From assembly GCA_030647005.1 (NCBI GenBank), contig JAUSKG010000031.1, positions 1-57,166 of the forward strand: a stretch of DNA of 57,166 nucleotides, in the 5' to 3' direction. Shown here piece by piece: positions 887 to 31,664 of this stretch. Both the position numbers and the translations under genes were made by a program. Numbering within the stretch: the first letter of the stretch is position 1; the number at the start of each line of letters is the position of its first letter. A model generated the notes under the pieces. The model worked only from the letters and a program-made list of their open reading frames with translations, did not search any database and had not been told where the DNA came from. This DNA comes from a bacterium (GTDB lineage Bacteria > Patescibacteriota > Patescibacteriia > JACPHY01).

Positions 887-2857
887 CTACGTCACCCAGA
901 GGTTGGAGCCGAGGGAGTGGTTGAGTTTCCAGAGTTTGGTGGTGTCGACGGCGCGATGGAGGCAGATGAAGCGATCGGACTTGTGATCCTTGATGAGGCG
1001 ATCGACGGTGGGCATGGTGAGCTCGTGGTCGAGGCAGATGCGGGCGCTCTTGGAGGCGTCGGCGAGGAGGAAGACGAAGTTATCGGTGAACTCGTCTTGT
1101 TTCGTGGCGGTGAAGGTGGCGTCGAATCCGTCCTTGAGTGCGATTTCGGCGAGGAGTTCGTCACGATCGAAAAGGAAGGTGAGGACTTGCTTCGAGCGTT
1201 CGAGGCACTCCTTGAGCGCGACTTCGTTTTCTGCGTCGGTCTTCTCGGGGTCACGCGCGTATGCGGTGTCCGGGAACAAACTCCTCGTCAACTCGAATAC
1301 GCGGAAGCCGGTATCTACTTTTAGTTTCTCCGAACGGGAGGGTATAAAACCCTCCCCTACGTCGCCGTTGATCCGCGCGCCCGCGCGCTTCACGCGCTCG
1401 ATGGTGATCTGTGAAATGGTGTTGTACCCCGCCTTCCGCGCCTCGCTTTTCTCGTCCGTCTCCTCCGGCAACTGCACAAGGATGAACTTTCGATTTCCGC
1501 CGTCTTCCTTATTCAATGCCATCACCGCCTGTGCGGTGGTGCCGGAACCAGCGAAGAAGTCGAGGATGAGGTCATCCGCTCCTTTCCTTGAAACAAAATT
1601 GATCAATTTTTTGATGAGCGGATATGGCTTGGAGTAATCGAAGACCTTTTCCCCAAATATATCCTCCATTTGCTTGGTCGCCATTGTACTTGAGTACTCC
1701 TGAATGACAGCTAACGGAGGCAACGTCCTCGTGATCGGTTTATCTTCGTTATCAACACTGAAGTATTGCTTAGTGTAAATAATCCAGTTATCTCCCCCAT
1801 TTTTCTTGACGACAATAAAACCATTTTGCGCTCCCCATTCGTATTTTTTCTTCGACCACCTCCAACAGCCACGCTTTCCATTTTCGCTCGGGTGGATATC
1901 TCCGCCATCTGGAGCTTCAATCGGATAATCAAGGGATGGAGAGTACTGGATACTAAAGCTATTCAGCTTGATGAGCTTGTATTTCCCCCTTTCCTTGACA
2001 TGCTCATCCTGCCCCGGATAACCACTGTCGTCTTCCACCTCGGACCCAGGAATAACGAGTTGCTCGATATCTTTAGCGAAAACACAAACGTATTCGTGCT
2101 TTATCTTGAAGTACTTACTATCAGATCCACCACCACCTTCTCGGTTCTCCCAAACAATTTGCGCCACAAAATTCTCCTCCCCGAACACTTCGTCCATGAG
2201 CTTGCGGAGGTTATGGACCTCGTGGTCGTCGATGCTTACGAAAATCACGCCGTCGTCGCGGAGGAGCTGGCGGGCGAGGAGGAGGCGGTTCTGCATCATG
2301 TTGAGCCAGTTGCTGTGGTAGCGGCCGGCGGATTCGGTGTTCGTGTCCATGCGCATGCCGTCGTGGAAGACGCCGTTCTGTTCCCAGTACGCCTGCTTTC
2401 CTTCTGTGAAATTATCCGAGTACACGAAATCATGGCCGGTGTTGTACGGCGGATCAATGTAGATGCACTTCACTTTCCCGAAGTACGACTTCCGGAGCAG
2501 TTTTAGCACCTCGAGGTTGTCGCCTTCGATGATGAGGTTGCCCGTCGTATCGAAATCCACGCTGCGCTTTGGATTTGGCCGAAGCCGCGCGCGGCTCGGC
2601 GTGAATGCGATGCGCTTCGACGCTTGTTTGCCCGCCCATCGGAACTCGAACCGTTCGACATCCGGCACGCCGTAGTTGCCGACGAACGCACGCAGCTCGC
2701 GCTCGCTCAACTTGCCGTCACCGTCGAAGAGCGCGGGGTAGAGAGCGCGGAGAGAAGCGAGAAGCTCGGCGTGGATGTCGGGGGTTTCGTGAGGGATGTG
2801 CTGGAGATCGTTGGTGGGCATATATGATGCGACCGTTTTACTGATTCGCGTACTCAT
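887..2857 (-). CDS. mod: Type III restriction-modification DNA methyltransferase (Mod, beta-class N6-adenine MTase)
   Basis: ORF 887..2899. Motif IV 'IYIDPPYNTGHDF' precedes motif I 'ILDFFAGSGTTAQAV' by ~290 aa (TRD between them), the beta-class order typical of Type III Mod. Start placed at ATG 2857 (AAGGA upstream, 5 nt after the stop of ORF 2862..3050); 2899 and 2821 are alternatives. Confidence 0.85.
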   Translation of the reverse strand: MSTRISKTVASYMPTNDLQHIPHETPDIHAELLASLRALYPALFDGDGKLSERELRAFVGNYGVPDVERFEFRWAGKQASKRIAFTPSRARLRPNPKRSVDFDTTGNLIIEGDNLEVLKLLRKSYFGKVKCIYIDPPYNTGHDFVYSDNFTEGKQAYWEQNGVFHDGMRMDTNTESAGRYHSNWLNMMQNRLLLARQLLRDDGVIFVSIDDHEVHNLRKLMDEVFGEENFVAQIVWENREGGGGSDSKYFKIKHEYVCVFAKDIEQLVIPGSEVEDDSGYPGQDEHVKERGKYKLIKLNSFSIQYSPSLDYPIEAPDGGDIHPSENGKRGCWRWSKKKYEWGAQNGFIVVKKNGGDNWIIYTKQYFSVDNEDKPITRTLPPLAVIQEYSSTMATKQMEDIFGEKVFDYSKPYPLIKKLINFVSRKGADDLILDFFAGSGTTAQAVMALNKEDGGNRKFILVQLPEETDEKSEARKAGYNTISQITIERVKRAGARINGDVGEGFIPSRSEKLKVDTGFRVFELTRSLFPDTAYARDPEKTDAENEVALKECLERSKQVLTFLFDRDELLAEIALKDGFDATFTATKQDEFTDNFVFLLADASKSARICLDHELTMPTVDRLIKDHKSDRFICLHRAVDTTKLWKLNHSLGSNLWVT

Positions 2858-2861
2858 TTTT

Positions 2862-3050
2862 CTATTCCTTGATCCAAATATGTTGCTGCGCACCGTCACC
2901 CTCCCTTATTTCGTACTTCAAGCCCCTCTCTTTGCATACCCTAAGAACCTCTGCAAAATCCTCATTCCTCGGATCGAGTTTGCAGCACAATGCGTAACCT
3001 TCATTGTCTTTCGGTCTTGGATCATCGCTTGCGAGTTGGTTCCAATGCAT
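2862..3050 (-). CDS. Small hypothetical protein between res and mod
   Basis: 62-aa ORF with an ATG start, co-directional with res and mod, in a visibly AT-richer patch. No recognisable motif (no HTH seen). Confidence 0.35.
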   Translation of the reverse strand: MHWNQLASDDPRPKDNEGYALCCKLDPRNEDFAEVLRVCKERGLKYEIREGDGAQQHIWIKE

Positions 3051-3074
3051 ACAGATGACTCAAATGTTTGGCGT

Positions 3075-3109
3075 GAGATTGCTTCGTCGCACGGCTCCTC
3101 GCAATGACA
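3075..3109. repeat. Solo half-copy of the GTCATTGCGAGG...CCTCGCAATGAC palindromic repeat family
   Basis: 'gagattgcttcgtcgcacggctcctcgcaatgaca' matches the right arm of the copies at 46711..46739 and 34483..34522. It sits in the 60-nt res/small-ORF gap. Confidence 0.6.
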
Positions 3110-3110
3110 C

Positions 3111-5783
3111 CTAGAGAATCGGTTGGCTGTTTGCGTCGAGGGCGCGGGATCGGAGGGATTTGAAATCCTTGATGGGGGCGATGTACTGGCGGTCGGTTTT
3201 TGGGGCGAAGCCGAGGGCGGTGAAGTGAGCGAGGGCGCACTTTATTTTCAGCTGCTCATCGGGGCGAAGCATACCAAGATCGTTTGATCCCTTCGTCTCC
3301 ACCACGAGGTAGCTCCGCGATTCCCCTCCATCATCGAGCTCGCGCTGCTCCACCACGAATGCCCAGTCCGGATGGTAGTCGCCAATAGGTGTAGCAATCG
3401 CGTACCAGTTGGGCAGTTTGAGGAACACGCGTACGCGCTGTTCACCATCGAGTGCGAGCGCAAATGGTCGTTCAATAGTTTCACTGTCGTAGATGACGTG
3501 ATCGTAAATGCTGCGCCGCACCGAAACCGTCTGTTGGTAGGTCTGCTCAATCTTTTCAAGATCGGCGAGCGGGTACTGCTCGTTGGTGGGCTGATAGCGG
3601 ATGACCGCGACAAGTTCCTCGGCCAAAATGCGCTTCAAGCGTTGGGCTGCTTCTGCGAGGTAGACGAGTGGATTCCGAGCGAGCTGGTCGGTGTTCGTCA
3701 GGCCATCCACGATGCGCTGCACCGTGACCGTACTCAACGCAGTATCGGCGACGAGCGCGACGACTGGATTGACGAATGCGGTACTGCCATCGATCGCGAC
3801 GCGATCATCACCTTCATACGTTGCGGCTGCAATGTCCCCGAGGTCGCGGATGCGTCGTCGTTCGATGATGATCTGTGGCCGCGGAACGACAATCGCGCCA
3901 CACGCGGCGATCCCGCGCGCGACAAGCTCCTCTTCGCGGAAAAACGCCTCGTACGTGGTCTTCGGCGCGATGCGCTCCCAGAGCTGCCGGAAGTGCTCGC
4001 TGTCGTACTGGTCACGATTGAGCTGAATGCGTGTCGGCTTCGCGCGCTTGTTCCGCACGGGAACCTGCTCGACGCCTTCGCCGTACTCCTCAACAAGTTC
4101 TCGCTGGAGACCCTCCGCGAACGCGTGGTAGCTCTCATTGGCGACGACGGTGAGGAGGTTCACCTCTTTACCTTCTGGTGTACCCGCTAGGTCGAATACG
4201 CGTTCCCCGTTCTGATCCACGCAAATGCGCAAACCGCGACCGATTTCCTGCCGCTTCTTCATGATGCTCTCCGTCTCATTGAGCGTGCAAATGGTGAACA
4301 CGTTTGGATTGTCCCACCCCACGCCGAGCGCGGAGTGCGAGAAAATAAACTCCACTGGTTCATCGGTGCTCAAGAGGCGTTCTTTGTTGCGGAGGATGAG
4401 GTCGTACGCTTCGCTATTCTTCCGCATGGATGTCTCACTATCCGTCCAATCGCCACCACCTGTTTTTGCGAAGTATCCTTCGTGCACTGCATCCACGTGC
4501 TCAGGATCGCGATGGTATCGGCGGCGCCACTCCTCAACGTACAGTTCACGGAATAGGCGACGAATGATGCCATCTTCATTATTGTAGTTCGCCACGCGAT
4601 CAATGAAGAAAAGCGCGAGCGCCTTGATGCCACGCGGTGCGAGCGCGTCCTTCTTCTCAAAATGCGAACGGATCGCGTATCGGATTTGTTCGCGGAAGAT
4701 CGCCTCACGATTCCGCCCGTGCTGCGCTTGCTCCGTGATCTCCGTGCCGTTCGTAAACGCAATCTTCGCGGTGTCGCTCCCCATGTCCTTCGAGATGCGC
4801 TCCACGATCCATCCCGTATACACGGGATTCTTCGTCTTTGTGGCAAGGTCGTCTCCAAACTTCACCGTGACAACACGGTCACGGAGCTCACTGCTCGCCG
4901 TACGCACCGCAAGCATGAGCTTCGCTTTTGGTGCTTTTGCGGAGAACACCGCCTTGGTGAATGCGATACGCACGTCGCTCTGCGTGCCCTCCTCCGAAAT
5001 GGGGTACACTTCAATCTTCTTTACGAGGCCCTGCCGATACGCATCGTACGGTGTGAGACGGTAAAGAAGGTTCGTAAGCACGCGATGCGTTGCGGAGTAC
5101 CGGAGCGTGCAGAGCGGGTGGAGTGCCGCGCGGCGCTCGACCATGTTCGGTGTATCCATCCCCTCCTGCGGTTCATCGAGGATAAGGACGGGGGCGGTGC
5201 GCTGAATAAGATCAATGAGACGTTCACCGTAGAGCGTGTCGCGTTCTTGATTGATGATGCGATCTTCTGCGTTGAACGCCTGCATGTTCATCACCATGAT
5301 CTGCAGTGCATTCGAGATCGCAAAGTGTTTCACGCGGTTGAGATGCTTGCCATCATACGGAAATGCCTCGAACGGCATCGCGTGGAAGAGCGCGCGGAAA
5401 TGCTCACGCGTCACTTCAATCGTCTTAAGAACACCTTCACGCACAGCTACACTCGGCACAACGATGATAAACTTCGTGAGGCCATACGCGCGATGGAGTT
5501 CGAAAATCGTGCGGAGGTACACATACGTCTTTCCGGTTCCGGTTTCCATTTCAATGGAAAAATCGAGCGCATCGGTGGGCTTGCCGTCCGCGATGCGGTT
5601 GTCTGACATGATTGTAGTGCGATTCGTAAGTACCTGCTCACTCGAGATATCGATTTTGTTTGCGATGACCTCTGCAAAGATACGATCCTGTGGACGAATA
5701 TGCGGCGCGCCCTCAAAAAGGCGCACCACTGCATGGATAGCATCGAGCTGAAATTGGAGGTTGGGATCGAAATGGAATCGCAT
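3111..5783 (-). CDS. res: Type III restriction enzyme Res subunit (SF2 helicase + C-terminal PD-(D/E)XK nuclease)
   Basis: 890 aa. Walker A 'METGTGKTYVY', motif II 'VLILDEPQ', late helicase motifs ('HSALGVGWDNPNVF', 'QEIGRGLR'), and C-terminal 'PDWAFVVE...YLVVETKG' nuclease core. Confidence 0.85.
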   Translation of the reverse strand: MRFHFDPNLQFQLDAIHAVVRLFEGAPHIRPQDRIFAEVIANKIDISSEQVLTNRTTIMSDNRIADGKPTDALDFSIEMETGTGKTYVYLRTIFELHRAYGLTKFIIVVPSVAVREGVLKTIEVTREHFRALFHAMPFEAFPYDGKHLNRVKHFAISNALQIMVMNMQAFNAEDRIINQERDTLYGERLIDLIQRTAPVLILDEPQEGMDTPNMVERRAALHPLCTLRYSATHRVLTNLLYRLTPYDAYRQGLVKKIEVYPISEEGTQSDVRIAFTKAVFSAKAPKAKLMLAVRTASSELRDRVVTVKFGDDLATKTKNPVYTGWIVERISKDMGSDTAKIAFTNGTEITEQAQHGRNREAIFREQIRYAIRSHFEKKDALAPRGIKALALFFIDRVANYNNEDGIIRRLFRELYVEEWRRRYHRDPEHVDAVHEGYFAKTGGGDWTDSETSMRKNSEAYDLILRNKERLLSTDEPVEFIFSHSALGVGWDNPNVFTICTLNETESIMKKRQEIGRGLRICVDQNGERVFDLAGTPEGKEVNLLTVVANESYHAFAEGLQRELVEEYGEGVEQVPVRNKRAKPTRIQLNRDQYDSEHFRQLWERIAPKTTYEAFFREEELVARGIAACGAIVVPRPQIIIERRRIRDLGDIAAATYEGDDRVAIDGSTAFVNPVVALVADTALSTVTVQRIVDGLTNTDQLARNPLVYLAEAAQRLKRILAEELVAVIRYQPTNEQYPLADLEKIEQTYQQTVSVRRSIYDHVIYDSETIERPFALALDGEQRVRVFLKLPNWYAIATPIGDYHPDWAFVVEQRELDDGGESRSYLVVETKGSNDLGMLRPDEQLKIKCALAHFTALGFAPKTDRQYIAPIKDFKSLRSRALDANSQPIL

Positions 5784-13976: not shown

Positions 13977-15275
13977 CTATAGTACCACACGCTGCTCATG
14001 GGTGAGATGTGCACGAGTCAAGGGCGCGTCTTGCACGAGTCCTTTCGTTGAGACGATCTGCCACAGGCACAGGCCACCGTAGCGAAAAGCCTCGGAAGAA
14101 CCCGTCAAATAGAGACGCCACATGCGAATGAATCGGTCGTCCAGCCCCTGTGCACGCACGGCATCGAGTTGCCGCTCGAAGCGTGCGCGCCAGTGATCGA
14201 GTGTCATCGCGTAGTGGATGCGGAGGTTTTCCACATCCGTGATCGTCTGGCCGGTCGCCGCAATCCCCTCTACGCACTCGCCGAGCGATGGGATGTAGCT
14301 ACCCGGGAAGATGTACCGATGGACCCACGGATCGCCCTTGTGCGGTCGCATGCGCCCGATCGTATGGAGGAGCGCAGTGCCGCCGTCTGCGAGCAACCGA
14401 TCAACTGCCTGGAAGTAGGCGGGGTGCTGTTCGAGTCCGACGTGCTCAAACATGCCGATGGAGAGTACCTTCTCAAATGGCACCTCGGTGAGTGTACGGT
14501 AATCAGCACGGCGGAGTTCGACGAGGTGCGTGAGGCCCGCCTCCGCGACACGGCGCTTGCCCTCTGCGAGCTGCGGCTCGGAGAGCGTCACGCCGAGCAC
14601 GCGCGCCTTGTAGTGCTGCGCGGCGTAGATGGCAAACCCGCCCCAACCACACCCGATGTCGAGCACGCGCTTTTTTTCCCGGAGCTGGAGCTTCCGACAG
14701 ATGAGCTCAAGCTTCTGCTCTTGCGCGCGCTCGAGCGTATCGTCCGACGCACGGAAATACGCGCAGGAGTACATCATGCGCTCGTCGAGCCAGCGCGTGT
14801 AGAAATCATTACCGTGGTTGTAGTGACGCGCGATGTTGTCACCGGCCCGCGCGAGCGTACTGCGCTGCCGAAGCACCATCATCGCGATGCGGATCCTCGC
14901 GATGAACGAGAGTGCCCGCAAACGCTCCTGGACCTCCGGCGCGTTGGACAAACGCAGGAACGCCTCGAGCGACCCCTCCACGGTGATCGCGCCATCCATG
15001 TACCCCTCACCAAACCCCAACGAGATGCTCCCGAACAGCGCACGGAGCGCACGCTCATGTCGGAAGGATACCGTGAACACCGGCTCCCGGCCAGGCGGAC
15101 CAAACCGCCGTTCCTCCCCATCCCAAAAACGCACGGCGTATGCCGTGTCCTGGGGGAACCGCCCGAAGAGCTCGAGCACGATGCGTTTGCGTGCTGCCAT
15201 ACCAAGTCCGCTTTTCCAGCATTTCTTCGTAACCGCGTAAACCGTGGCATCAATGGGGCCAAGTCCCATTTTCAC
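13977..15275 (-). CDS. cfa: Cyclopropane-fatty-acyl-phospholipid synthase family SAM methyltransferase
   Basis: 432 aa. SAM motif 'VLDIGCGWGGFAIYAA' and CFA-synthase-like flanks ('HYNHGNDFYTRWLDERMMYSCAYF'). An alternative start is at 15200. Confidence 0.8.
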   Translation of the reverse strand: MKMGLGPIDATVYAVTKKCWKSGLGMAARKRIVLELFGRFPQDTAYAVRFWDGEERRFGPPGREPVFTVSFRHERALRALFGSISLGFGEGYMDGAITVEGSLEAFLRLSNAPEVQERLRALSFIARIRIAMMVLRQRSTLARAGDNIARHYNHGNDFYTRWLDERMMYSCAYFRASDDTLERAQEQKLELICRKLQLREKKRVLDIGCGWGGFAIYAAQHYKARVLGVTLSEPQLAEGKRRVAEAGLTHLVELRRADYRTLTEVPFEKVLSIGMFEHVGLEQHPAYFQAVDRLLADGGTALLHTIGRMRPHKGDPWVHRYIFPGSYIPSLGECVEGIAATGQTITDVENLRIHYAMTLDHWRARFERQLDAVRAQGLDDRFIRMWRLYLTGSSEAFRYGGLCLWQIVSTKGLVQDAPLTRAHLTHEQRVVL

Positions 15276-15287
15276 CTTTCTGCGGTT

Positions 15288-15836
15288 CTATTTTTTGCCC
15301 TTACTTTCTAGTGCAGCATTTAGTAACGATTTGTTGTATGAATTTGTCAACCTCATCTCATTCAATATTTGATTGTCGAAAGCGGCTACAGAAACTTCAA
15401 GTGAATAAAAAGAATTGAGCTGATCTAAAAGTCCCACTGCAGTGCGCATATCATTTTCTGATGCACTGTCCGATCCTAGTTTTATGTATTCTCGACCTAA
15501 CGACTGTTCGGCGTTTCCAATTTCCTGAAGCTGTGCTTTTCCCGTACTACAGGAAAGAGTCGCCGATTCCCACTCATACTCATAATTGACACAATCTATG
15601 CTAGTTGCAAACTCTAGGGTTTCCTCACCTTCAGCTACGTAATCAGCTCCTATTTCATCAAACGGAACTAGTTCATCTTCTGATACGTTATTTACATATT
15701 GCTCGGCCTGCTCTTGTGTAAATCCTGTATCTTCAGCAAAATTATCAACCACCGCCTGCTGATTAAAAGTGAAAGCGGTTCCACCTATAACAAGGGTAAT
15801 AATACCCCCTGTAATAATGTTTTTTAGGTTATTCAT
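15288..15836 (-). CDS. Hypothetical membrane-anchored acidic protein on a strongly AT-rich patch
   Basis: 182 aa with N-terminal TM 'IITGGIITLVIGGTAF'. Composition is sharply AT-richer than both flanks. No SD seen. Confidence 0.55.
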   Translation of the reverse strand: MNNLKNIITGGIITLVIGGTAFTFNQQAVVDNFAEDTGFTQEQAEQYVNNVSEDELVPFDEIGADYVAEGEETLEFATSIDCVNYEYEWESATLSCSTGKAQLQEIGNAEQSLGREYIKLGSDSASENDMRTAVGLLDQLNSFYSLEVSVAAFDNQILNEMRLTNSYNKSLLNAALESKGKK

Positions 15837-15854
15837 ATGTAGGGGAGATCGTGT

Positions 15855-15896
15855 CCGGAAACCGTGTCATCGAAACCGTGTCAAGTCCGATTTTTT
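15855..15896. repeat. Tandem 'GAAACCGTGTCA' x2 + 'AGTCCGATTTTTT' motif, related in architecture to the left arm of repeats R1/R2
   Basis: 'ggaaaccgtgtcatcgaaaccgtgtcaagtccgatttttt' compared with R1/R2 'agaaaggggtcataaagaaaggggtcaagtccattttt'. Located just upstream of the AT-rich gene 15288..15836. Confidence 0.45.
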
Positions 15897-15938
15897 CTTA
15901 TTTATTACACATTTACATTTACGCGCATTTACGCGATA

Positions 15939-16937
15939 TCAATGGGGTGATCGCTTTGCACGTGCACGCGTAGTGCGCGATATCACCGGTTGTCCATCGG
16001 CACGACGGATCTCGATGCGTCGTACGAGCGTGCGTGGAAAATCCGTGAAAATCCCGACGCGATACTCCGGATCCTTGGGATGCACACGCCTCCTCGCGAT
16101 GGATTCTTCGGGATAGTATGGAAGCTTTCCGATCGCACAGAACAAGCTCGCCTCGGCCTCGAATCCAAACGAACGCTCATTCCAGATGTAGAGATCGAGA
16201 TCGCGGATAAGAAGAAAAATGAGGATCACCGCACTTGCTATGAGTACCGTGACGATGTCGAAGAAGAGTGCACCAGTGCGAAGGCCGTAGAGCGATGCGA
16301 CGACGAGACCTGCGAGCGCGAAGAGGACGGCCCAGGAGAAGACGGAGAGTGATTTCGCGCCGAGGACGAGGAGTTGTTGGCGTGCGAGTGCGATGCCATC
16401 AAGCTCGCCCATGATGACCTGGTGGATGGACGACACTTCCTTCTTAAAGGGAAGTGCTTGGATCACGGCGGATGCGGCATCGTACTCAGCAATCGTGTGC
16501 TTTGGGTAGTCTATAATTTCGTAGTCAAACGTACGCCGGACGTACGTATCAATCACCTCCGCGAGCGCTGCGGCTGCGGACGGATGGTAGAGCGTCACTG
16601 AGCGAAAAAGCGACGCCCATCCGGACGTTTCCGTGGCGATGAGATTCTTCACATGGATGTAATCTGTGGACGTGATATAAATGTAGAACCCTGCGATGAT
16701 CCCAAAGAGGAACGTGGTGATTGTGAGGATTGTGGAACCCGGGCCTTCCGCGATGAATCCGGTTCGCGGGAAGACAAAAAGTAACGCGATGAAAATAATC
16801 ATCGAACACACGAACACGATCGGCGTGTGAAGGAGCTTTGGGAGACCCTGGAGTCCACCAGGTGATTTGCGCATAACAGTTGAGCGTAGAGCAAGATGGT
16901 GTGACGAAGCACTGGTCAGTTTTTCATAGTATATCAC
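15939..16937 (-). CDS. Hypothetical integral membrane protein
   Basis: 332-aa ORF (GTG start) with several hydrophobic helices. Possibly DUF4239-like, but not verifiable here. Confidence 0.5.
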   Translation of the reverse strand: MIYYEKLTSASSHHLALRSTVMRKSPGGLQGLPKLLHTPIVFVCSMIIFIALLFVFPRTGFIAEGPGSTILTITTFLFGIIAGFYIYITSTDYIHVKNLIATETSGWASLFRSVTLYHPSAAAALAEVIDTYVRRTFDYEIIDYPKHTIAEYDAASAVIQALPFKKEVSSIHQVIMGELDGIALARQQLLVLGAKSLSVFSWAVLFALAGLVVASLYGLRTGALFFDIVTVLIASAVILIFLLIRDLDLYIWNERSFGFEAEASLFCAIGKLPYYPEESIARRRVHPKDPEYRVGIFTDFPRTLVRRIEIRRADGQPVISRTTRARAKRSPH

Positions 16938-26784: not shown

Positions 26785-26999
26785 CTCTTCCTCCTTGTTA
26801 ACTCCAAGTTGTAAAGGTGCGTCTGCACCGTAACACGAGGATTCATACGTGTCAAGCATCTGTAGTGGGCTCATACGGCGACTTGACTCCAAGATCAATA
26901 TATGATGTAGTGGTACGTCGCTGGATAATCCAGTGGCACGTTTTTTCACAACTGGCTGCAAGCCACAATCCCCAACCCATACCCCATAGGAGGTGATTC

Positions 27000-28826
27000 A
27001 TGTCGCTGTCACTAATGCAGCAAGTCGTCCTCACACAACGTCTCGTCGTATCCATGCCGGAGATCCAGTGGAGCCTTCTCCAGGCGTACCAGAACGGAAT
27101 CATCGGGCCGCCGCCCTACGTCGAGCCGACGTTCGAGGAAGAGAACTTCACCCCGCGCCTCAAGCTCACGCAGAGCAAAATCGAGGGCTTCGAGACCCTC
27201 GGCCACGTCGAGCGTATGCGCCTCGTGGATACGGCCAACGAGATCTTCCGCTTCGCCTACACGCGCGGCGTTGATGAGGCAGACAACAGGAAAAAGGGCT
27301 ACTACAAGATCCCCCTCCTGCGTGACCGCACCATCATGGACGCGCACGACGGGATAGACACGATCAAGAAGCGCATCAGCCGCGCCGAGTACGATCGGGC
27401 AATCGCCATACTGGAGTCCGTCGGCGAAATGGAACGCATCGCCCGCGCCATCCCGTACTTCGGCCTGTACCAGACGGTCGTCAAGCACCTCCGCCGCGCC
27501 CACAAGGTTGGTCTCGAGCAGACCGTGCTCGTGTCTGTAGACCGCGGTGGTCGCCTTCCCTGCATCATCCTGCAACGCGCTCTTGGTCTCACCGAGATGC
27601 ACAGCATCAAGGTGGATCAGAGCGGTGGTCGGCTCGACGAGGACAAGCTCGGGGAGCTCGCCAAGCAGGGAGTTCTCCGAGGCAAGCACGTCCTCTTCGT
27701 GGATTCGACGGTGGACTCCGGCCGTCAGATCCGAGTGTTGGTGCAGTACTTCGATGCGGACAAGTGGCGCAACGTGCTCGGTCACTCGAGCTGGAGTATC
27801 GTCGGCTCGAACGAGTACGGCGACAACCTCGACCGCCACTGCAACGTCAACTGGGGCGTTGACCCAGACGACACCTTCGAGGACAATCCGGAACTCATGG
27901 GCATTGACTATGCCCCCGGCACCCATACCAAGATCGTGGAGCGTCCCACGGAAGCATCCAAGACGATCCGCAAGTGCCTGCTTGCCGTCCCCGACGGCTA
28001 CATCTATGTCGCCGCGGATGCCGACAACCAGATCGAGGAGCAGCGCAAGAAGTGGACCGAACGACAAAAAAACCGACGTGCGGGACACGACCAGCAGGTC
28101 ATCGAGGAACGGGCCGAACACGCACAGGAGGTAGTCAAGTACAAGGAGCAGCAGAAGCAGGCCAGGACCGAGGAAGCCAAACGTCGCAAGCGTGAGCAGG
28201 TCGAGCGAAAACTCGAGAGAATCACGTCCAGCAAGCGGTGGAAGAAGCTCGTCGCCAACTGCACCGCCCTACCCGAGGAGTCGTTGCCGGTGGCCTTGCC
28301 GAACGGAACCCATCACGCGCGCCACAATGTGCTCGTGGTCGGGTCAGGGAAGCAGGTAGACCTTCCGCGGAGCGCGGTGCAGTTCGTGGCCGACAACCTC
28401 GGTCCCCACTGCTCGTTCTTTGCGGGAACGCCGGACGGCAACCCTGGCGCAATCCTCAATGCGACCCTCACGAGCAACAAGGTCGCCCAACCGGAAGTTC
28501 GTCTCTACCAGCCCAGCTTCATGCAGGGCAGAACGGACGATTCGTTCGGCGGAGCACCCATCATGTTCGTGGGCGAGAAGGATGACATGCGTCGGCAGAT
28601 GATCTCCGACAGCAACGTCGTCCTGACCCTCGGCGGCGCACAGGGCACGCTTCGCGAAGTACTCCTCGCGCTTGCCGCCGGCAAACCGACCATCCTGATC
28701 GAGGGCTACGGTGCAGTTTCGGCCTACGTGCTCTCCACCAAGAGCACGCGCCAGAATCCGAACCTGAGGCCGTGCAAGACCCTCGTCGAGGCCGCGCAGA
28801 CCATCCTGGACATGTCCAAAGCGTAG
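27000..28826 (+). CDS. Phosphoribosyltransferase (PRTase) - coiled coil - SLOG/LOG-like (TIGR00725-type) Rossmann fusion protein
   Basis: 608 aa with AGGAGG 7 nt upstream of the ATG. PRTase: 'TVLVSVDRGGRLPCIILQRAL' and PRPP loop 'KHVLFVDSTVDSGRQI'. K/E/R/Q-rich segment ~aa 345-415. C-terminal 'NVLVVGSGK' and 'VVLTLGGAQGTLREVLLALAAGKPTILIEG' resemble the LOG-family GGxGTxxE motif. Confidence 0.6.
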   Translation: MSLSLMQQVVLTQRLVVSMPEIQWSLLQAYQNGIIGPPPYVEPTFEEENFTPRLKLTQSKIEGFETLGHVERMRLVDTANEIFRFAYTRGVDEADNRKKGYYKIPLLRDRTIMDAHDGIDTIKKRISRAEYDRAIAILESVGEMERIARAIPYFGLYQTVVKHLRRAHKVGLEQTVLVSVDRGGRLPCIILQRALGLTEMHSIKVDQSGGRLDEDKLGELAKQGVLRGKHVLFVDSTVDSGRQIRVLVQYFDADKWRNVLGHSSWSIVGSNEYGDNLDRHCNVNWGVDPDDTFEDNPELMGIDYAPGTHTKIVERPTEASKTIRKCLLAVPDGYIYVAADADNQIEEQRKKWTERQKNRRAGHDQQVIEERAEHAQEVVKYKEQQKQARTEEAKRRKREQVERKLERITSSKRWKKLVANCTALPEESLPVALPNGTHHARHNVLVVGSGKQVDLPRSAVQFVADNLGPHCSFFAGTPDGNPGAILNATLTSNKVAQPEVRLYQPSFMQGRTDDSFGGAPIMFVGEKDDMRRQMISDSNVVLTLGGAQGTLREVLLALAAGKPTILIEGYGAVSAYVLSTKSTRQNPNLRPCKTLVEAAQTILDMSKA

Positions 28827-28850
28827 GCAGACAACGTCGAGGAACAACCC

Positions 28851-28882
28851 AAGACCCGCACAAAAGTGCGGGTCTTGTTCTT
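28851..28882 (+). terminator. Probable intrinsic terminator of the PRTase-SLOG gene
   Basis: Perfect 11-bp stem 'aagacccgcac/gtgcgggtctt', loop AAAA, then 'gttctt' (weak U-tract), 25 nt after the stop. Confidence 0.55.
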
Positions 28883-28964
28883 GGCGGTTTCAGCTTCCCC
28901 ATGCAACACTGCTCCGGATTTGCAATTCGGTTAAAGATGCGGGTGTAAAAAACGCAGAAGTAGT

Positions 28965-29012
28965 GTCATTGCGAGGAGTCCCGAGCTTGCCTCGGGACTC
29001 CTCGCAATGACA
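28965..29012. repeat. Short perfect palindrome of the GTCATTGCGAGG family
   Basis: 'gtcattgcgaggagtcccgag cttgc ctcgggactcctcgcaatgac': 21-bp arms. Confidence 0.8.
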
Positions 29013-29094
29013 CTAACATGCAAAAATGAAATACCCTGCGGTCTCTGCCGAAGGGTATTTCATTGGACTTGACCCCTTACCCCAATACACTACC

Positions 29095-29123
29095 TTGACA
29101 CAACCGATATTTCCTGCTATGAT
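29095..29123 (+). promoter_or_regulatory. Near-consensus sigma-70 promoter for the CSD-fusion gene
   Basis: TTGACA (29095..29100), 17-nt spacer, TATGAT (29118..29123). Predicts a ~115-nt leader before ATG 29244. Confidence 0.6.
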
Positions 29124-29243
29124 GGGGAATACCGTGCTCCCCGGCCCTCTGCGCAGGTACAGCCCCGCGCAGGGTCCCCGGGTGGGCATAATGCTCATTC
29201 CCAAAGGAAATCTGACTGACTGCTGCTGTCTGGAGTGTTACAA

Positions 29244-30716
29244 ATGTCGAAAGCAAAGGAGTACCTCGGTCGAATCGTGACGGTTCGGCAAGAGGAGGGG
29301 TTTGGATTCATCGGATTGGACTCGGTGTCCATGGATGACGGAAGCGACCACGATCTCGAAACGACCGGCGACATCTTCGTCCACCAGGACGATTGCGGGT
29401 CACCCCTTCAAGTCGGCGTGACGCTGCAATTTGAGGTCGTTGCGGACCACCGTCGCGGCGACGGGTTCCTCCGCGCGCGTTGCGCCACGGAACTGGCCGA
29501 GGTTGAGGTCATGCCGGACAACGATCCGGTCGTGATGGCACTCGCCACGCAGCGTGACGCGTATCGTGGCGAGCACGCGCTCGCGATGCCGATCCCGCCG
29601 CACCCGATGCGACACCGCATGAAGCAGGTGCCGGAGGAGACGGTCGCGCAGGTCGTGCAGAACGACCCGCTCCCGGAAACATCGCGAGATGAGACCGATG
29701 CCATGGACCCCAACGACCCGCGCACCGCGCAGGCGCTCCGGGCGTTCATGGAGCACGCGTACCCACATCTCGCAGGTCTCGAGATTGGCTACGACGTCCT
29801 CAACGCGGACGAGGAAGCATTCGACACGAAAGTCGCGGAGGCAACCGCGGGTCTCCGCGAGCTTGGCATGGAAGAGCAGGCGCAGCACGTCGAAAGCGAG
29901 ATGGGACGATTCCGCGGCGTGCGCCGCGTACTCGGGTTCATGGCCGAGCAACGCTTGCTCCGGCCGAATACGTGCATTCCGACACGGTATCTGCCGGACC
30001 TCTTCATGGCATGCCCGGTCTGGTTCCACGCAACGGATGAGCAAGCCGGAGGTGCCGCGAATGCGGAGTGGGACAGCGCGGACCCCCGTGTCCATGCTGC
30101 GACGATCGCGCTCTGCGACATCTTTCCGAAAAACGAACGCTGGTCGGACACGGTGCAGCTCTTCAACCGTCGGCTGCGGACCCTCGCGCGGTACAAGGGT
30201 GACGTGATCCCGTTGCAGATCACGCGCCTCATTCGTGAAGCACGACAGCACTTCGATCACCTCGTCATCGCGACCCCGTACCACGACGTGGCCGGACGCG
30301 AGTGGCAGGATCCGAACTGGCTCCGTGGCATTGACCCATACGTCATCGGCATGCAGAACGGCTGTTCGCACTTCTTCATCCTCGGACGGTTCTCGGACTC
30401 CGGCGTGTTCCCGCTGCTCCATGAGCTCGTCGGGGACACCATCGAGTTCCTACGCAAGAACCGCGAAAAACTCGCGGGGTTCAATGAGACGAACGATCCG
30501 TACTGGCACGTCGGAAGCACTGGAGTCCACTGCCACTCCCAACGCTCCTGGCATGGGAGGACCAGGGTCAAGCTCGGCACCTTCCTCCAGAGCCATGTGG
30601 ACGCACTCCTGCGTGCCTTCGATGCAGGGAAGCTCTTCGACTGGCTCCGTGGCGAGTGGAGCGAAGATGCGACATCCGCCAGCCCGACCACGAGCAGCGC
30701 ACCCCCGCGTACCTGA
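29244..30716 (+). CDS. Cold-shock-domain (CSD/OB) N-terminal fusion protein with large uncharacterised C-terminal region
   Basis: ORF from GTG 29235; ATG 29244 is preferred (GGAG 8 nt upstream). N-terminal 'GRIVTVRQEEGFGFIGLD...GDIFVHQDD' resembles CSD RNP1/RNP2-like motifs. The remaining ~400 aa are unrecognised. Confidence 0.6.
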   Translation: MSKAKEYLGRIVTVRQEEGFGFIGLDSVSMDDGSDHDLETTGDIFVHQDDCGSPLQVGVTLQFEVVADHRRGDGFLRARCATELAEVEVMPDNDPVVMALATQRDAYRGEHALAMPIPPHPMRHRMKQVPEETVAQVVQNDPLPETSRDETDAMDPNDPRTAQALRAFMEHAYPHLAGLEIGYDVLNADEEAFDTKVAEATAGLRELGMEEQAQHVESEMGRFRGVRRVLGFMAEQRLLRPNTCIPTRYLPDLFMACPVWFHATDEQAGGAANAEWDSADPRVHAATIALCDIFPKNERWSDTVQLFNRRLRTLARYKGDVIPLQITRLIREARQHFDHLVIATPYHDVAGREWQDPNWLRGIDPYVIGMQNGCSHFFILGRFSDSGVFPLLHELVGDTIEFLRKNREKLAGFNETNDPYWHVGSTGVHCHSQRSWHGRTRVKLGTFLQSHVDALLRAFDAGKLFDWLRGEWSEDATSASPTTSSAPPRT

Positions 30717-30818: not shown

Positions 30819-30957
30819 AAAGAAAGGGGTCATAAAGAAAGGGGTCAAGTCCATTTTTCATTCGATCACCTCATACTTCCCATAGCCGTCATCGTTAAAT
30901 AAATGGACTTGACCCCTTTATTAGACCCCTTTATTTACATATTGACCCCTTTATTTA
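30819..30957. repeat. Repeat R1: internally palindromic ~105-bp element plus extra GACCCCTTTAT iterations
   Basis: 'aaagaaaggggtcataaagaaaggggtcaagtccatttttcattcgatcacctc...aaatggacttgacccctttat', then 2 more 'gacccctttattta'. Direct repeat of R2 (31558..31664). Confidence 0.75.
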
Positions 30958-30994: not shown

Positions 30995-31456
30995 CTATCT
31001 AATAAATCCTCCATGTATCAAACAACGATACACAATTTTCTCATTCAACAAAATTTCCTCCTGACCAGCAAAGTTTTCTAACCCACCCCTTGCCGTAAAT
31101 TGATAAGTCCATTCGCCATCAGAAAACTTTGCTGGTCCTCGAACTGGTATTACATCGTCATACTCTTGCATAAGTGCTTGTCGGAGAAAATCGTATACAT
31201 CTTTCTCGCTTACTTTTTCATCAAGGACAAAGCCGAAATAATTTGCTCCCCATACCGGCTTTTCATTTTCATATACGATTTCCTCGCCGATAAAATCGCG
31301 CCCACCAAAATAAGTGTCGTGGTAAATTAAGCCGTCCTTTTCAAAATGATAATCTTCTGATCTCAAGCGAGAGGGCGCGACTTTTGGAGCGGTCTTGTTG
31401 GCGTAGGTTGCCTTGTTCGCCTCATTTAGAAACTTTGCAAGATTTTTTATGTCCAT
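30995..31456 (-). CDS. DUF5680-like protein on a strongly AT-rich cassette
   Basis: 153 aa. 'ATYANK...SRLRSEDYHFEKDGLIYHDTYFGGRDFIGEEIVYENEKPVWGANYFG...RGP...VYRCLIHGGFI' matches my recollection of the DUF5680 pattern. Composition is sharply AT-richer than the surrounding genome. Confidence 0.6.
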   Translation of the reverse strand: MDIKNLAKFLNEANKATYANKTAPKVAPSRLRSEDYHFEKDGLIYHDTYFGGRDFIGEEIVYENEKPVWGANYFGFVLDEKVSEKDVYDFLRQALMQEYDDVIPVRGPAKFSDGEWTYQFTARGGLENFAGQEEILLNEKIVYRCLIHGGFIR

Positions 31457-31557: not shown

Positions 31558-31664
31558 GGAAGAAAGGGGCCATCACGAAGAAAGGGGTCAAGTCCATTTT
31601 TCATTCGATCACCTCGTGCTCCCTAAAGCCGCCATCGTCAAAGAAATGGACTTGACCCCTTTAT
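31558..31664. repeat. Repeat R2: direct copy of R1
   Basis: 'ggaagaaaggggccatcacgaagaaaggggtcaagtccatttttcattcgatcacctcgtgctccctaaagccgccatcgtcaaagaaatggacttgacccctttat'. High identity to R1 by eye, same orientation. Confidence 0.75.

Follow-up and report, generated by a model that had tools for sequence, protein, structure and literature searches.

What a phosphoribosyltransferase (PRTase) joined to a SLOG domain might do in a patescibacterial cell is the question raised by a 608-aa open reading frame (ORF) on contig JAUSKG010000031.1 of assembly GCA_030647005.1. The stretch analysed, hereafter the window, covers positions 1 to 57,166 of the forward strand of this contig. The initial annotation, made from the letters alone, described the product as a PRTase/coiled-coil/SLOG fusion and proposed it as the core of an undescribed conflict or signalling system centred on nucleotides. 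We found that the ORF is a real gene, far beyond chance, and that its product combines an N-terminal region, an XGPRT/GpT-like type I PRTase, a long helix and a C-terminal SLOG domain. The fusion defines a tiny, sharply bounded family of candidate phyla radiation (CPR) bacteria and DPANN archaea. As to its role, we tentatively favour the interconversion of purine nucleotides and bases over the conflict function first proposed.

Domain architecture and extent of the family

A search of 5.8 billion proteins returned 128 homologues at E ≤ 1e-3 (~128 clusters), and the top ones align across essentially the whole length (E = 0, 33-82% identity), which bears out the plus-strand ORF proposed earlier. 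Its G+C content (0.61) equals that of the contig. An AlphaFold (AF2) model of the protein, built from an alignment of 48 sequences (A1), reached a mean predicted local distance difference test score (pLDDT) of 92.8. Profile searches, this model and Foldseek comparisons confirm the following architecture.

27000..28826, plus strand: complete ORF of the fusion protein, 608 aa, ATG start, stop codon included
27000..27035, plus strand: N-terminal peptide MSLSLMQQVVLT (aa 1-12), of low complexity, rich in S, G, M, L and Q, predicted to be disordered
27036..27509, plus strand: family-specific N-terminal region (aa 13-170), without a Pfam or PDB match
27510..28019, plus strand: type I PRTase domain of the XGPRT/archaeal GpT kind with its own conserved C-terminal hood (aa 171-340)
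28020..28304, plus strand: K/E/R/Q-rich linker (aa 341-435), a single long helix (aa 341-409) followed by a connector
28305..28823, plus strand: SLOG-superfamily Rossmannoid domain of the TIGR00725/SLOG cluster4/LOG-like kind (aa 436-608)

The order of PRTase, helix and LOG-like SLOG domain is the one that the initial annotation had read. The PRTase peptides quoted there lie at aa 174-194 (TVLVSVDRGGRLPCIILQRAL) and aa 229-244 (KHVLFVDSTVDSGRQI), the C-terminal ones at aa 443-451 (NVLVVGSGK) and aa 540-554 (VVLTLGGAQGTLREV), and its coiled-coil-like linker is modelled by AF2 as one continuous helix. Two features had been overlooked: the family-specific N-terminal region and the restriction of the family to CPR and DPANN.

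The N-terminal ~170 aa are conserved as highly as the remaining protein. Residues W24, A29, N80, Y87, P105, R108, R146, I147 and Y153 are invariant (here and below, invariance is taken from A1 and motif counts from 120 full-length homologues). We found no Pfam match for this region, no structural match in the PDB with Foldseek (best E 0.85) and no other architecture that contains it in an exhaustive hidden Markov model (HMM) search. Modelled alone, the region has a pLDDT of 79, versus >90 for most of it in the full-length model, where aa 11-50 range from 73 to 95. Because it is modelled more confidently in the whole protein than on its own, the region is probably packed against the PRTase domain, forming an enlarged hood. 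The preceding peptide falls below a pLDDT of 50 (aa 1-11), and its pattern, M-(S/G)-(M/L)-(S/G)-L-x-L-x-Q-x-L-x-L-T-Q-(R/Q)-L, is kept in bacterial and archaeal members (A1 columns 1-100). Since homologues open with the same M-S/G-M/L-S-L peptide, the ATG start is supported. One homologue, P0124, carries two copies of the low-complexity peptide. A loose resemblance to sigma-54 region I was considered and rejected; a single peptide of seven matched Pfam, with E 0.07. The linker is the part of lowest identity. It is variable, being short or largely absent in DPANN and Peregrinibacteria forms (gaps in A1), and the spacing between the hood motif of the PRTase domain and the glycine loop of the SLOG domain is bimodal among homologues.

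The full fusion, a gene of ultra-small symbionts among bacteria and archaea, is very rare. An HMM search of 1.84 billion representative sequences yielded just 34 at E ≤ 1e-30; we found 19 loci among 185,579 species-representative genomes and 41 among 241 million metagenome records, and no relatives in IMG/VR. The named carriers belong to the CPR/Patescibacteria (Uhrbacteria, Yanofskybacteria, Parcubacteria, Peregrinibacteria, Peribacteria) and DPANN archaea (Micrarchaeota, Woesearchaeota, Nanoarchaeota, Diapherotrites), plus one diderm metagenome-assembled genome (MAG). On grounds of rarity, a universal core gene of CPR/DPANN was rejected. A midpoint-rooted neighbour-joining tree has two cleanly separated clades, one bacterial and one archaeal, with two copies labelled bacterial nested inside the latter. 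One of these two (L022) belongs to a genuine diderm, in which the gene sits between ftsZ and mlaDEF, with an ftsX-like gene, an M23 peptidase gene and an S41/Ctp protease gene downstream. The pattern suggests that the gene crossed between the domains a few times long ago and was then inherited and lost, rather than exchanged rampantly. All parts of the protein are under purifying selection (dN/dS of 0.15-0.29 in each of four parts against two homologues).

Larger variants of the family also occur. P0125 (L024:87-5189), from a MAG labelled Nitrospira, is 1700 aa long, and P0119, with 991 aa, has Fis-type HTH_8 domains at its C-terminus. Large extensions are found in P0119, P0125, P0120, P0124 and P0128, the N-terminal ones being ~120-130 aa long in several of them.

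Nucleotide sites of the PRTase and SLOG domains

The PRTase domain lies at the margin of the public family models. Pfam PF00156 matches aa 170-249 with E 3.5e-3 (17.1 bits, under the gathering cut-off of 26.3), and some homologues carry a precomputed PF00156 match. The NCBIfam model for xanthine PRTase (XPRT) gave E 1.8e-4 and 21.1 bits versus an equivalog cut-off of 138, and that for HGPRTase 12.1 bits versus 150. Among PDB profiles, the part matches Sulfolobus solfataricus GpT-1 (4trb, 2.4e-5) and Pyrococcus horikoshii 1vdm (2.6e-5). Foldseek placed the middle domain with many HGPRT, XGPRT and GpT structures (probability 1.0); the target template modelling (TM) scores reach only 0.35-0.47 because the hood differs. 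The model has the five-stranded alpha/beta core and hood of the PRTase fold, and at the level of fold and motifs the protein belongs to the type I PRTases. Its PRTase domain is most similar to metabolic 6-oxopurine enzymes (S. solfataricus GpT-1, the P. horikoshii protein, E. coli XGPRT). A housekeeping Hpt, Gpt or Xpt orthologue was rejected, given scores far below every NCBIfam equivalog cut-off and a length of 608 aa with three extra parts versus ~150-180 aa. By the same scores, the protein is neither an Hpt or Apt orthologue nor one of PyrE or ComF, in line with the initial annotation. Three motifs characterise the domain, two of them aligned with the loops for pyrophosphate (PPi) and phosphoribosyl pyrophosphate (PRPP) of related enzymes.

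27540..27554, plus strand: PPi-binding loop D181-R182-G183-G184-R185, aligned with (A/S)RGG of GpT-1, 1vdm and XGPRT
27702..27728, plus strand: PRPP/5'-phosphate loop D235-S-T-V-D239-S-G-R-Q243, placed by alignment to XGPRT/GpT
27852..27884, plus strand: acidic/aromatic hood motif W285-G-V-D-P-D-D-T-F-E-D295, almost invariant

DRGGR is present in 120/120 homologues and invariant in A1. DSTVDSGRQ is likewise found in 120/120, and D[DE] in none. The PRPP motif reads VLFV-DS-TVDSGRQ, with the first acid, the third Asp and S/T-G present and Ser236 in place of the second acid; D235-S236 aligns with the canonical DD/ED pair, and D239 with the third Asp in the XGPRT/GpT loop DDxxDTG, the catalytic base of 6-oxopurine PRTases. 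The hood motif (WG..PD..FED in 119/120) is, from its position, a probable base-binding and specificity element. With GpT-1 and GpT-2 of S. solfataricus (4trb/4z1o), 1vdm and XGPRT the fusion has in common the core fold, the RGG PPi loop, the position of the PRPP loop and the third Asp. It differs from them in DS for DD, a different hood, added N- and C-terminal elements and the fusion to SLOG (profile E ~1e-5).

A standalone archaeal PRTase-like clade of ~240-250 aa also has DRGGR and a DST-type PRPP loop. It is represented by P0142 (L070:5001-5729) and P0143 (L073:5001-5756), and may be an unrecognised archaeal type of purine PRTase; P0142 has no Pfam match at E ≤ 0.01. P0142, the closest standalone relative sharing the DRGG/DST motifs, is encoded beside purA, purB, purF and purC in an archaeon. 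P0143 has an information-processing gene context, and the contigs of P0148 are too short to show neighbours. Split pairs of a PRTase and a SLOG gene were not seen among the closest standalone relatives.

The C-terminal domain matches PF18306 (SLOG cluster4) at aa 534-584 (E 5.6e-5, 23.2 bits versus a cut-off of 26.3) and TIGR00725 (E 3.3e-5, 23.4 bits versus 106.9); cluster2 and LSDAT are the remaining Pfam matches of SLOG type. Five family members (P0119, P0120, P0122, P0124, P0128) pass the PF18306 threshold with 28.6-37.9 bits. A PDB profile search gave 1rcu with E 1.6e-6. With Foldseek, the domain matched 1rcu (TM1055; E 8.7e-6, target TM 0.71), the LOGs 5its, 5zbl and 5zbk (target TM 0.64-0.68), molybdenum cofactor (MoCo) carriers (0.75-0.80, with 2iz5 at 0.80) and PpnN (9hs1, E 6.6e-4). 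The model has the SLOG Rossmannoid fold, and at the level of fold and motifs the domain is a cluster4/TIGR00725-like member of the SLOG superfamily. Its conserved elements are as follows.

28425..28448, plus strand: glycine-rich loop G476-T-P-D-G-N-P-G483, putatively phosphate-binding
28590..28592, plus strand: nearly invariant R531, at or beside the position of the LOG catalytic Arg (CgLOG Arg99)
28632..28658, plus strand: nucleotide-binding motif G545-G-A-Q-G-T-L-R-E553, GGxxGTxxE in the TM1055 register

In the glycine-rich loop, G476, T477, N481 and G483 are invariant and GT..GN.G occurs in 111/120 homologues; the loop is presumably the counterpart of the phosphate-binding GGGxxGxMG loop of LOG. 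R531 aligns exactly with the Arg of TM1055 and is displaced by one position from the R in the LOG 'ERK' in HMM alignments. The GG..GT..E motif is present in 105/120, with G546, G549, T550 and E553 invariant, and E553 aligns with the LOG catalytic Glu. The catalytic residues of CgLOG are Arg99 and Glu122 (PMC4979012). Profiles, AlphaFold and Foldseek thus sustain the superfamily named by the initial annotation (LOG/TIGR00725/SLOG) but not its motif, given there as GGxGTxxE and actually GGxxGTxxE. TM1055 (1rcu), with TIGR00725 and PF18306, is the best match of the domain in both sequence and structure, with the same register and a matching Arg. TM1055, however, is a standalone protein of 170-195 aa and of unknown function, and the window protein stays below both family cut-offs. 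LOG proper (PF03641) was rejected, as the window protein has no PF03641 match and has LGGAQGTLRE instead of PGGxGTxxE; the canonical LOG motif appears only in the distant variants P0119 and P0125. Likewise, the window protein gave no YpsA-family Pfam match at E ≤ 1.

Such sites could belong to a protein in which one domain is catalytic and the other an allosteric ligand sensor, an explanation that we consider unlikely, if the strongest of the alternatives. The PRTase-fold domain would sense PRPP, GMP or (p)ppGpp, as PurR and PyrR do, and control a LOG-type nucleosidase; or else the SLOG domain would sense a nucleotide and control the PRTase. The SLOG superfamily includes pure binders, MoCo carriers are among the best structural matches, and the SLOG domain of TRPM2 turns up weakly in the profile search of this part. 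PpnN itself belongs to the LOG family and is under allosteric control, with regulatory domains at its flanks; (p)ppGpp targets Hpt and Gpt (PMC10311079), and every homologue has Ser where the PRPP loop would carry its second acidic residue. However, both sites of the fusion are conserved as active sites typically are (D239 and the PPi loop, E553/R531). Nor need S236 imply inactivity, because uracil PRTases (UPRTs), with a single acidic residue in a 'DP' pair, are nevertheless active.

A candidate bifunctional purine-nucleotide enzyme

Our preferred explanation, held tentatively and at somewhat less than even confidence, is a bifunctional enzyme with putative activities, substrates and regulation that would interconvert purine nucleoside monophosphate (NMP) and base plus ribose-phosphate. 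The LOG-like SLOG domain would hydrolyse the N-glycosidic bond of a nucleoside 5'-monophosphate to give free base and ribose 5-phosphate (R5P), and the XGPRT/GpT-like PRTase would run the opposite reaction, from base and PRPP to NMP and PPi. With two opposing activities on one chain, the direction of flux could be set by ligands. The breakdown direction would scavenge nucleotides for ribose-phosphate, carbon and PRPP, and the rebuilding direction would restore the purine nucleotides needed by the cell. The family-specific N-terminal region and the docked N-terminal peptide would be the likeliest regulatory or specificity elements, while the long helix may be merely a spacer or an oligomerisation element. 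The protein would be self-contained and probably oligomeric, and its gene a rare, laterally spread accessory trait of host-dependent CPR/DPANN cells that lack nucleotide biosynthesis.

We favour this metabolic explanation because both nucleotide sites are intact, all parts are under purifying selection, the PRTase is metabolic-like, P0142 is encoded beside pur genes, PpnN with Gpt/Hpt sets a precedent and the hosts are scavengers. In addition, when the flanking ORFs of 70 loci, corresponding to 49 independent groups, were clustered, no shared neighbour gene emerged beyond lineage-local synteny. A complete standalone enzyme fits this result, since the gene is always alone and without a partner. 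The result also agrees with the earlier expectation that the gene would have no conserved syntenic housekeeping context.

In E. coli, the LOG-family nucleosidase PpnN and Gpt/Hpt oppose each other under reciprocal regulation by (p)ppGpp, with PpnN as a supplier of R5P for PRPP (PMC10311079). These are the same two opposing chemistries as would be carried out by the domains of the fusion, and the PpnN/LOG core is structurally similar to its C-terminal domain (see the 9hs1 match above). The differences are also clear. PpnN (YgdH) and Gpt/Hpt are separate proteins, whereas the window fusion is one polypeptide; it is without the flanking regulatory domains of PpnN, and its SLOG domain is of the TIGR00725/cluster4 type, not PF03641. 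Its PRTase departs from Gpt/Hpt in a Ser where the second acidic residue would be, in its unique hood and in 170 aa added at the N-terminus. As regards the hosts, several papers (PMC5113843, PMC7304191, others) report that CPR and DPANN carry genes for the salvage of nucleosides and nucleotides, form III RuBisCO among them, and a preprint reports the transfer of such genes between archaea and Patescibacteriota.

Several observations weigh against an enzyme of this kind. If both domains acted on the same base, the net result would be futile hydrolysis of PRPP. The family, with its 19 loci among 185,579 species genomes and 41 metagenome loci, is far too rare for a general CPR/DPANN salvage route. 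No nucleotide-metabolism gene is linked to the fusion in the 49 independent loci, and, of two standalone relatives whose flanks are informative, P0142 alone has purine genes next to it. The dN/dS against the closest homologue, ~0.25, is only moderately low. Invariant Ser236 hints at a non-standard substrate, as do the hood motif, which is unique, and the novel N-terminal region. Finally, the SLOG motifs do not prove catalysis, because ligand-only SLOG domains (those of ThsA, TRPM2 and the MoCo carrier) retain similar glycine-rich and Glu motifs.

The least likely of the explanations considered is a small assembly line whose product is a modified base or ribotide, much like the cytokinin-making fusions of isopentenyltransferase (IPT) with LOG; the LOG fusions of Rhodococcus and Claviceps are of this IPT-LOG type. 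The PRTase would load an unusual heterocycle onto PRPP, the N-terminal region or a host enzyme might modify the ribotide, and the LOG-like domain would free the modified base, a possible signal or effector in the relationship between symbiont and host. The unique and invariant hood motif, the change at S236, the unmatched and highly conserved 170-aa N-terminal region and the restriction to host-dependent lineages speak for such a scheme. LOG enzymes, moreover, typically free modified bases from ribotides (PMC4979012; PMC9503650), and LOG-domain fusions are reported from phytopathogenic Rhodococcus (PMC4092121). However, the N-terminal region has no recognisable catalytic fold, no biosynthetic partner genes lie nearby, and the PRTase domain has its nearest structural relatives among ordinary purine enzymes.

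The bifunctional enzyme may also be taken a step further, to a ligand-switched two-way 'purine nucleotide valve' toggled by the N-terminal region and peptide. Much like the opposing enzyme PFK-2/FBPase-2, it would switch between breakdown, for the supply of R5P, and rebuilding, in the service of the nucleotide economy of an episymbiont; alternatively, it might handle a non-canonical base for communication between symbiont and host. We regard these extensions as quite unlikely.

Genomic setting and the conflict reading

The ORF has signals of its own, as first annotated.

26988..26993, plus strand: Shine-Dalgarno-like AGGAGG, 6 nt before the ATG, seen directly in the sequence
28850..28877, plus strand: terminator-like hairpin, 12-bp stem with 8 G-C pairs, 24 nt past the stop codon

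The hairpin is G+C-rich and was listed by the scan on the minus strand; on the plus strand the palindrome is followed by TTCTTGG, a weak T-tract. An Rfam search of the window locus (E-value mode) found no riboswitch or leader RNA upstream of the ORF.

The window is an ordinary chromosomal segment that encodes DnaG, RpoD, PBP1a, PolX, iPGM, LexA, a MurD-like ligase and FtsEX. Near the ORF are genes for a DsbD-like protein, a C39-like peptidase, a serine hydrolase, an MFS fragment and two unknowns. The homologues have unrelated flanks (Mur ligase/HrcA-GrpE-DnaK, ParAB/TopA, ZnuABC, proteasome/aCPSF1, others), which differ even between 80%-identical copies. Downstream, a 493-aa ORF (29235-30716, plus strand) has an N-terminus resembling a cold-shock domain (GFGFI) and no Pfam, NCBIfam, PADLOC or PHROGs match. 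A link between this gene and the fusion had been raised as a question, but the pairing is not conserved in other genomes across the 49 loci, and the cold-shock-like gene has its own strong promoter-like site (29095-29123, TTGACA-17-TATGAT with TG). The description of the ORF as lying on the minority strand holds locally, whereas its placement between repeats does not. Only hairpins follow it, at 28961-29015 and 29025-29064, between its terminator and the promoter-like site; the first is a perfect palindrome with 25-bp arms, unique in the window. The 92-nt direct repeats (30830-30921 and 31573-31664) instead flank a DUF5680 gene (30995..31456, minus strand) with a G+C content of 0.43 versus ~0.62 for the contig. 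The repeat copies are 89% identical, each with an internal inverted repeat, and together with the DUF5680 gene they look like a small inserted cassette. Another low-GC patch (15001-16000, 0.47) overlaps a Pfam-less ORF (15288..15836, minus strand) and adjoins a bestrophin-like gene (15939..16937, minus strand). The sole clear defence locus in the window is a type III restriction-modification pair (887-5783, minus strand), made up of an N6_N4 methylase (887..2899) and a ResIII protein with an endonuclease (3111..5783); it lies 21 kb from the ORF, in a stretch of lower G+C content (0.51-0.58).

This setting bears on the proposal that the fusion is the core of a conflict or signalling system. In its single-protein form, the SLOG domain would sense a nucleotide signal and the PRTase (or the LOG activity) would deplete or modify the nucleotide pool as an anti-phage response; we judge this distinctly unlikely. 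Several family members pass the threshold of PF18306, the SLOG cluster4 family that Burroughs and colleagues reportedly tied to conflict systems in 2015. The distribution is rare and patchy, flanks vary even between very similar copies, and some loci lie among hypothetical genes and a recombinase. SLOG-PRTase gene pairs have also been noted among nucleotide-centred conflict systems (Brzozowski et al. 2019, PMC6459960). In these YpsA-clade pairs the SLOG domain is functionally coupled to the PRTase, much as in the fusion; they are, however, two genes with a YpsA-type SLOG (GxD/E motif), whereas the fusion is one chain with a LOG-like/cluster4 SLOG and belongs to CPR/DPANN lineages.

Against the conflict proposal, PADLOC gave only a chance-level match on the coiled coil (E 0.12), and no conserved partner, be it a TIR protein or a cyclase, and no recurring defence genes are adjacent in the 49 loci. 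The enrichment in defence islands suggested by the initial annotation was not found, the flanks of homologues being housekeeping or miscellaneous genes. No viral or anti-defence counterpart was detected: IMG/VR holds none, and PHROGs and BFVD gave only generic single-domain PRTase or SLOG matches, on which grounds a viral origin was rejected as well. All parts evolve under purifying selection, outside the linker there is no hypervariable sensing surface, and the clean bacterial/archaeal split of the tree shows no rampant transfer. The PRTase domain, moreover, resembles metabolic purine PRTases and not defence PRTases. Thoeris ThsA (SIR2-SLOG) is similar in that a SLOG and an enzymatic domain are combined in one protein, but the fusion is without a SIR2/TM effector, a ThsB/TIR partner, a PADLOC match or a defence context. 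An architecture that contains a SLOG domain thus need not be a defence system.

Source annotations call members of the family 'hypothetical protein' or 'hypoxanthine phosphoribosyltransferase / predicted Rossmann-fold nucleotide-binding protein', and we found no published description of a LOG-PRTase fusion in the searchable literature. The family adds an uncharacterised, highly conserved stretch of 170 aa and a PRTase clade with an invariant DS in place of DD in the PRPP loop. CPR and DPANN account for a large part of microbial diversity and rely on nucleotides that they scavenge, and the balance between breakdown and re-synthesis in these cells is poorly known. If the bifunctional enzyme that we favour is real, it would be an example of opposing enzymes fused in one chain, and a single conserved protein joining the opposing steps would offer a compact, testable handle on the nucleotide economy of CPR and DPANN.

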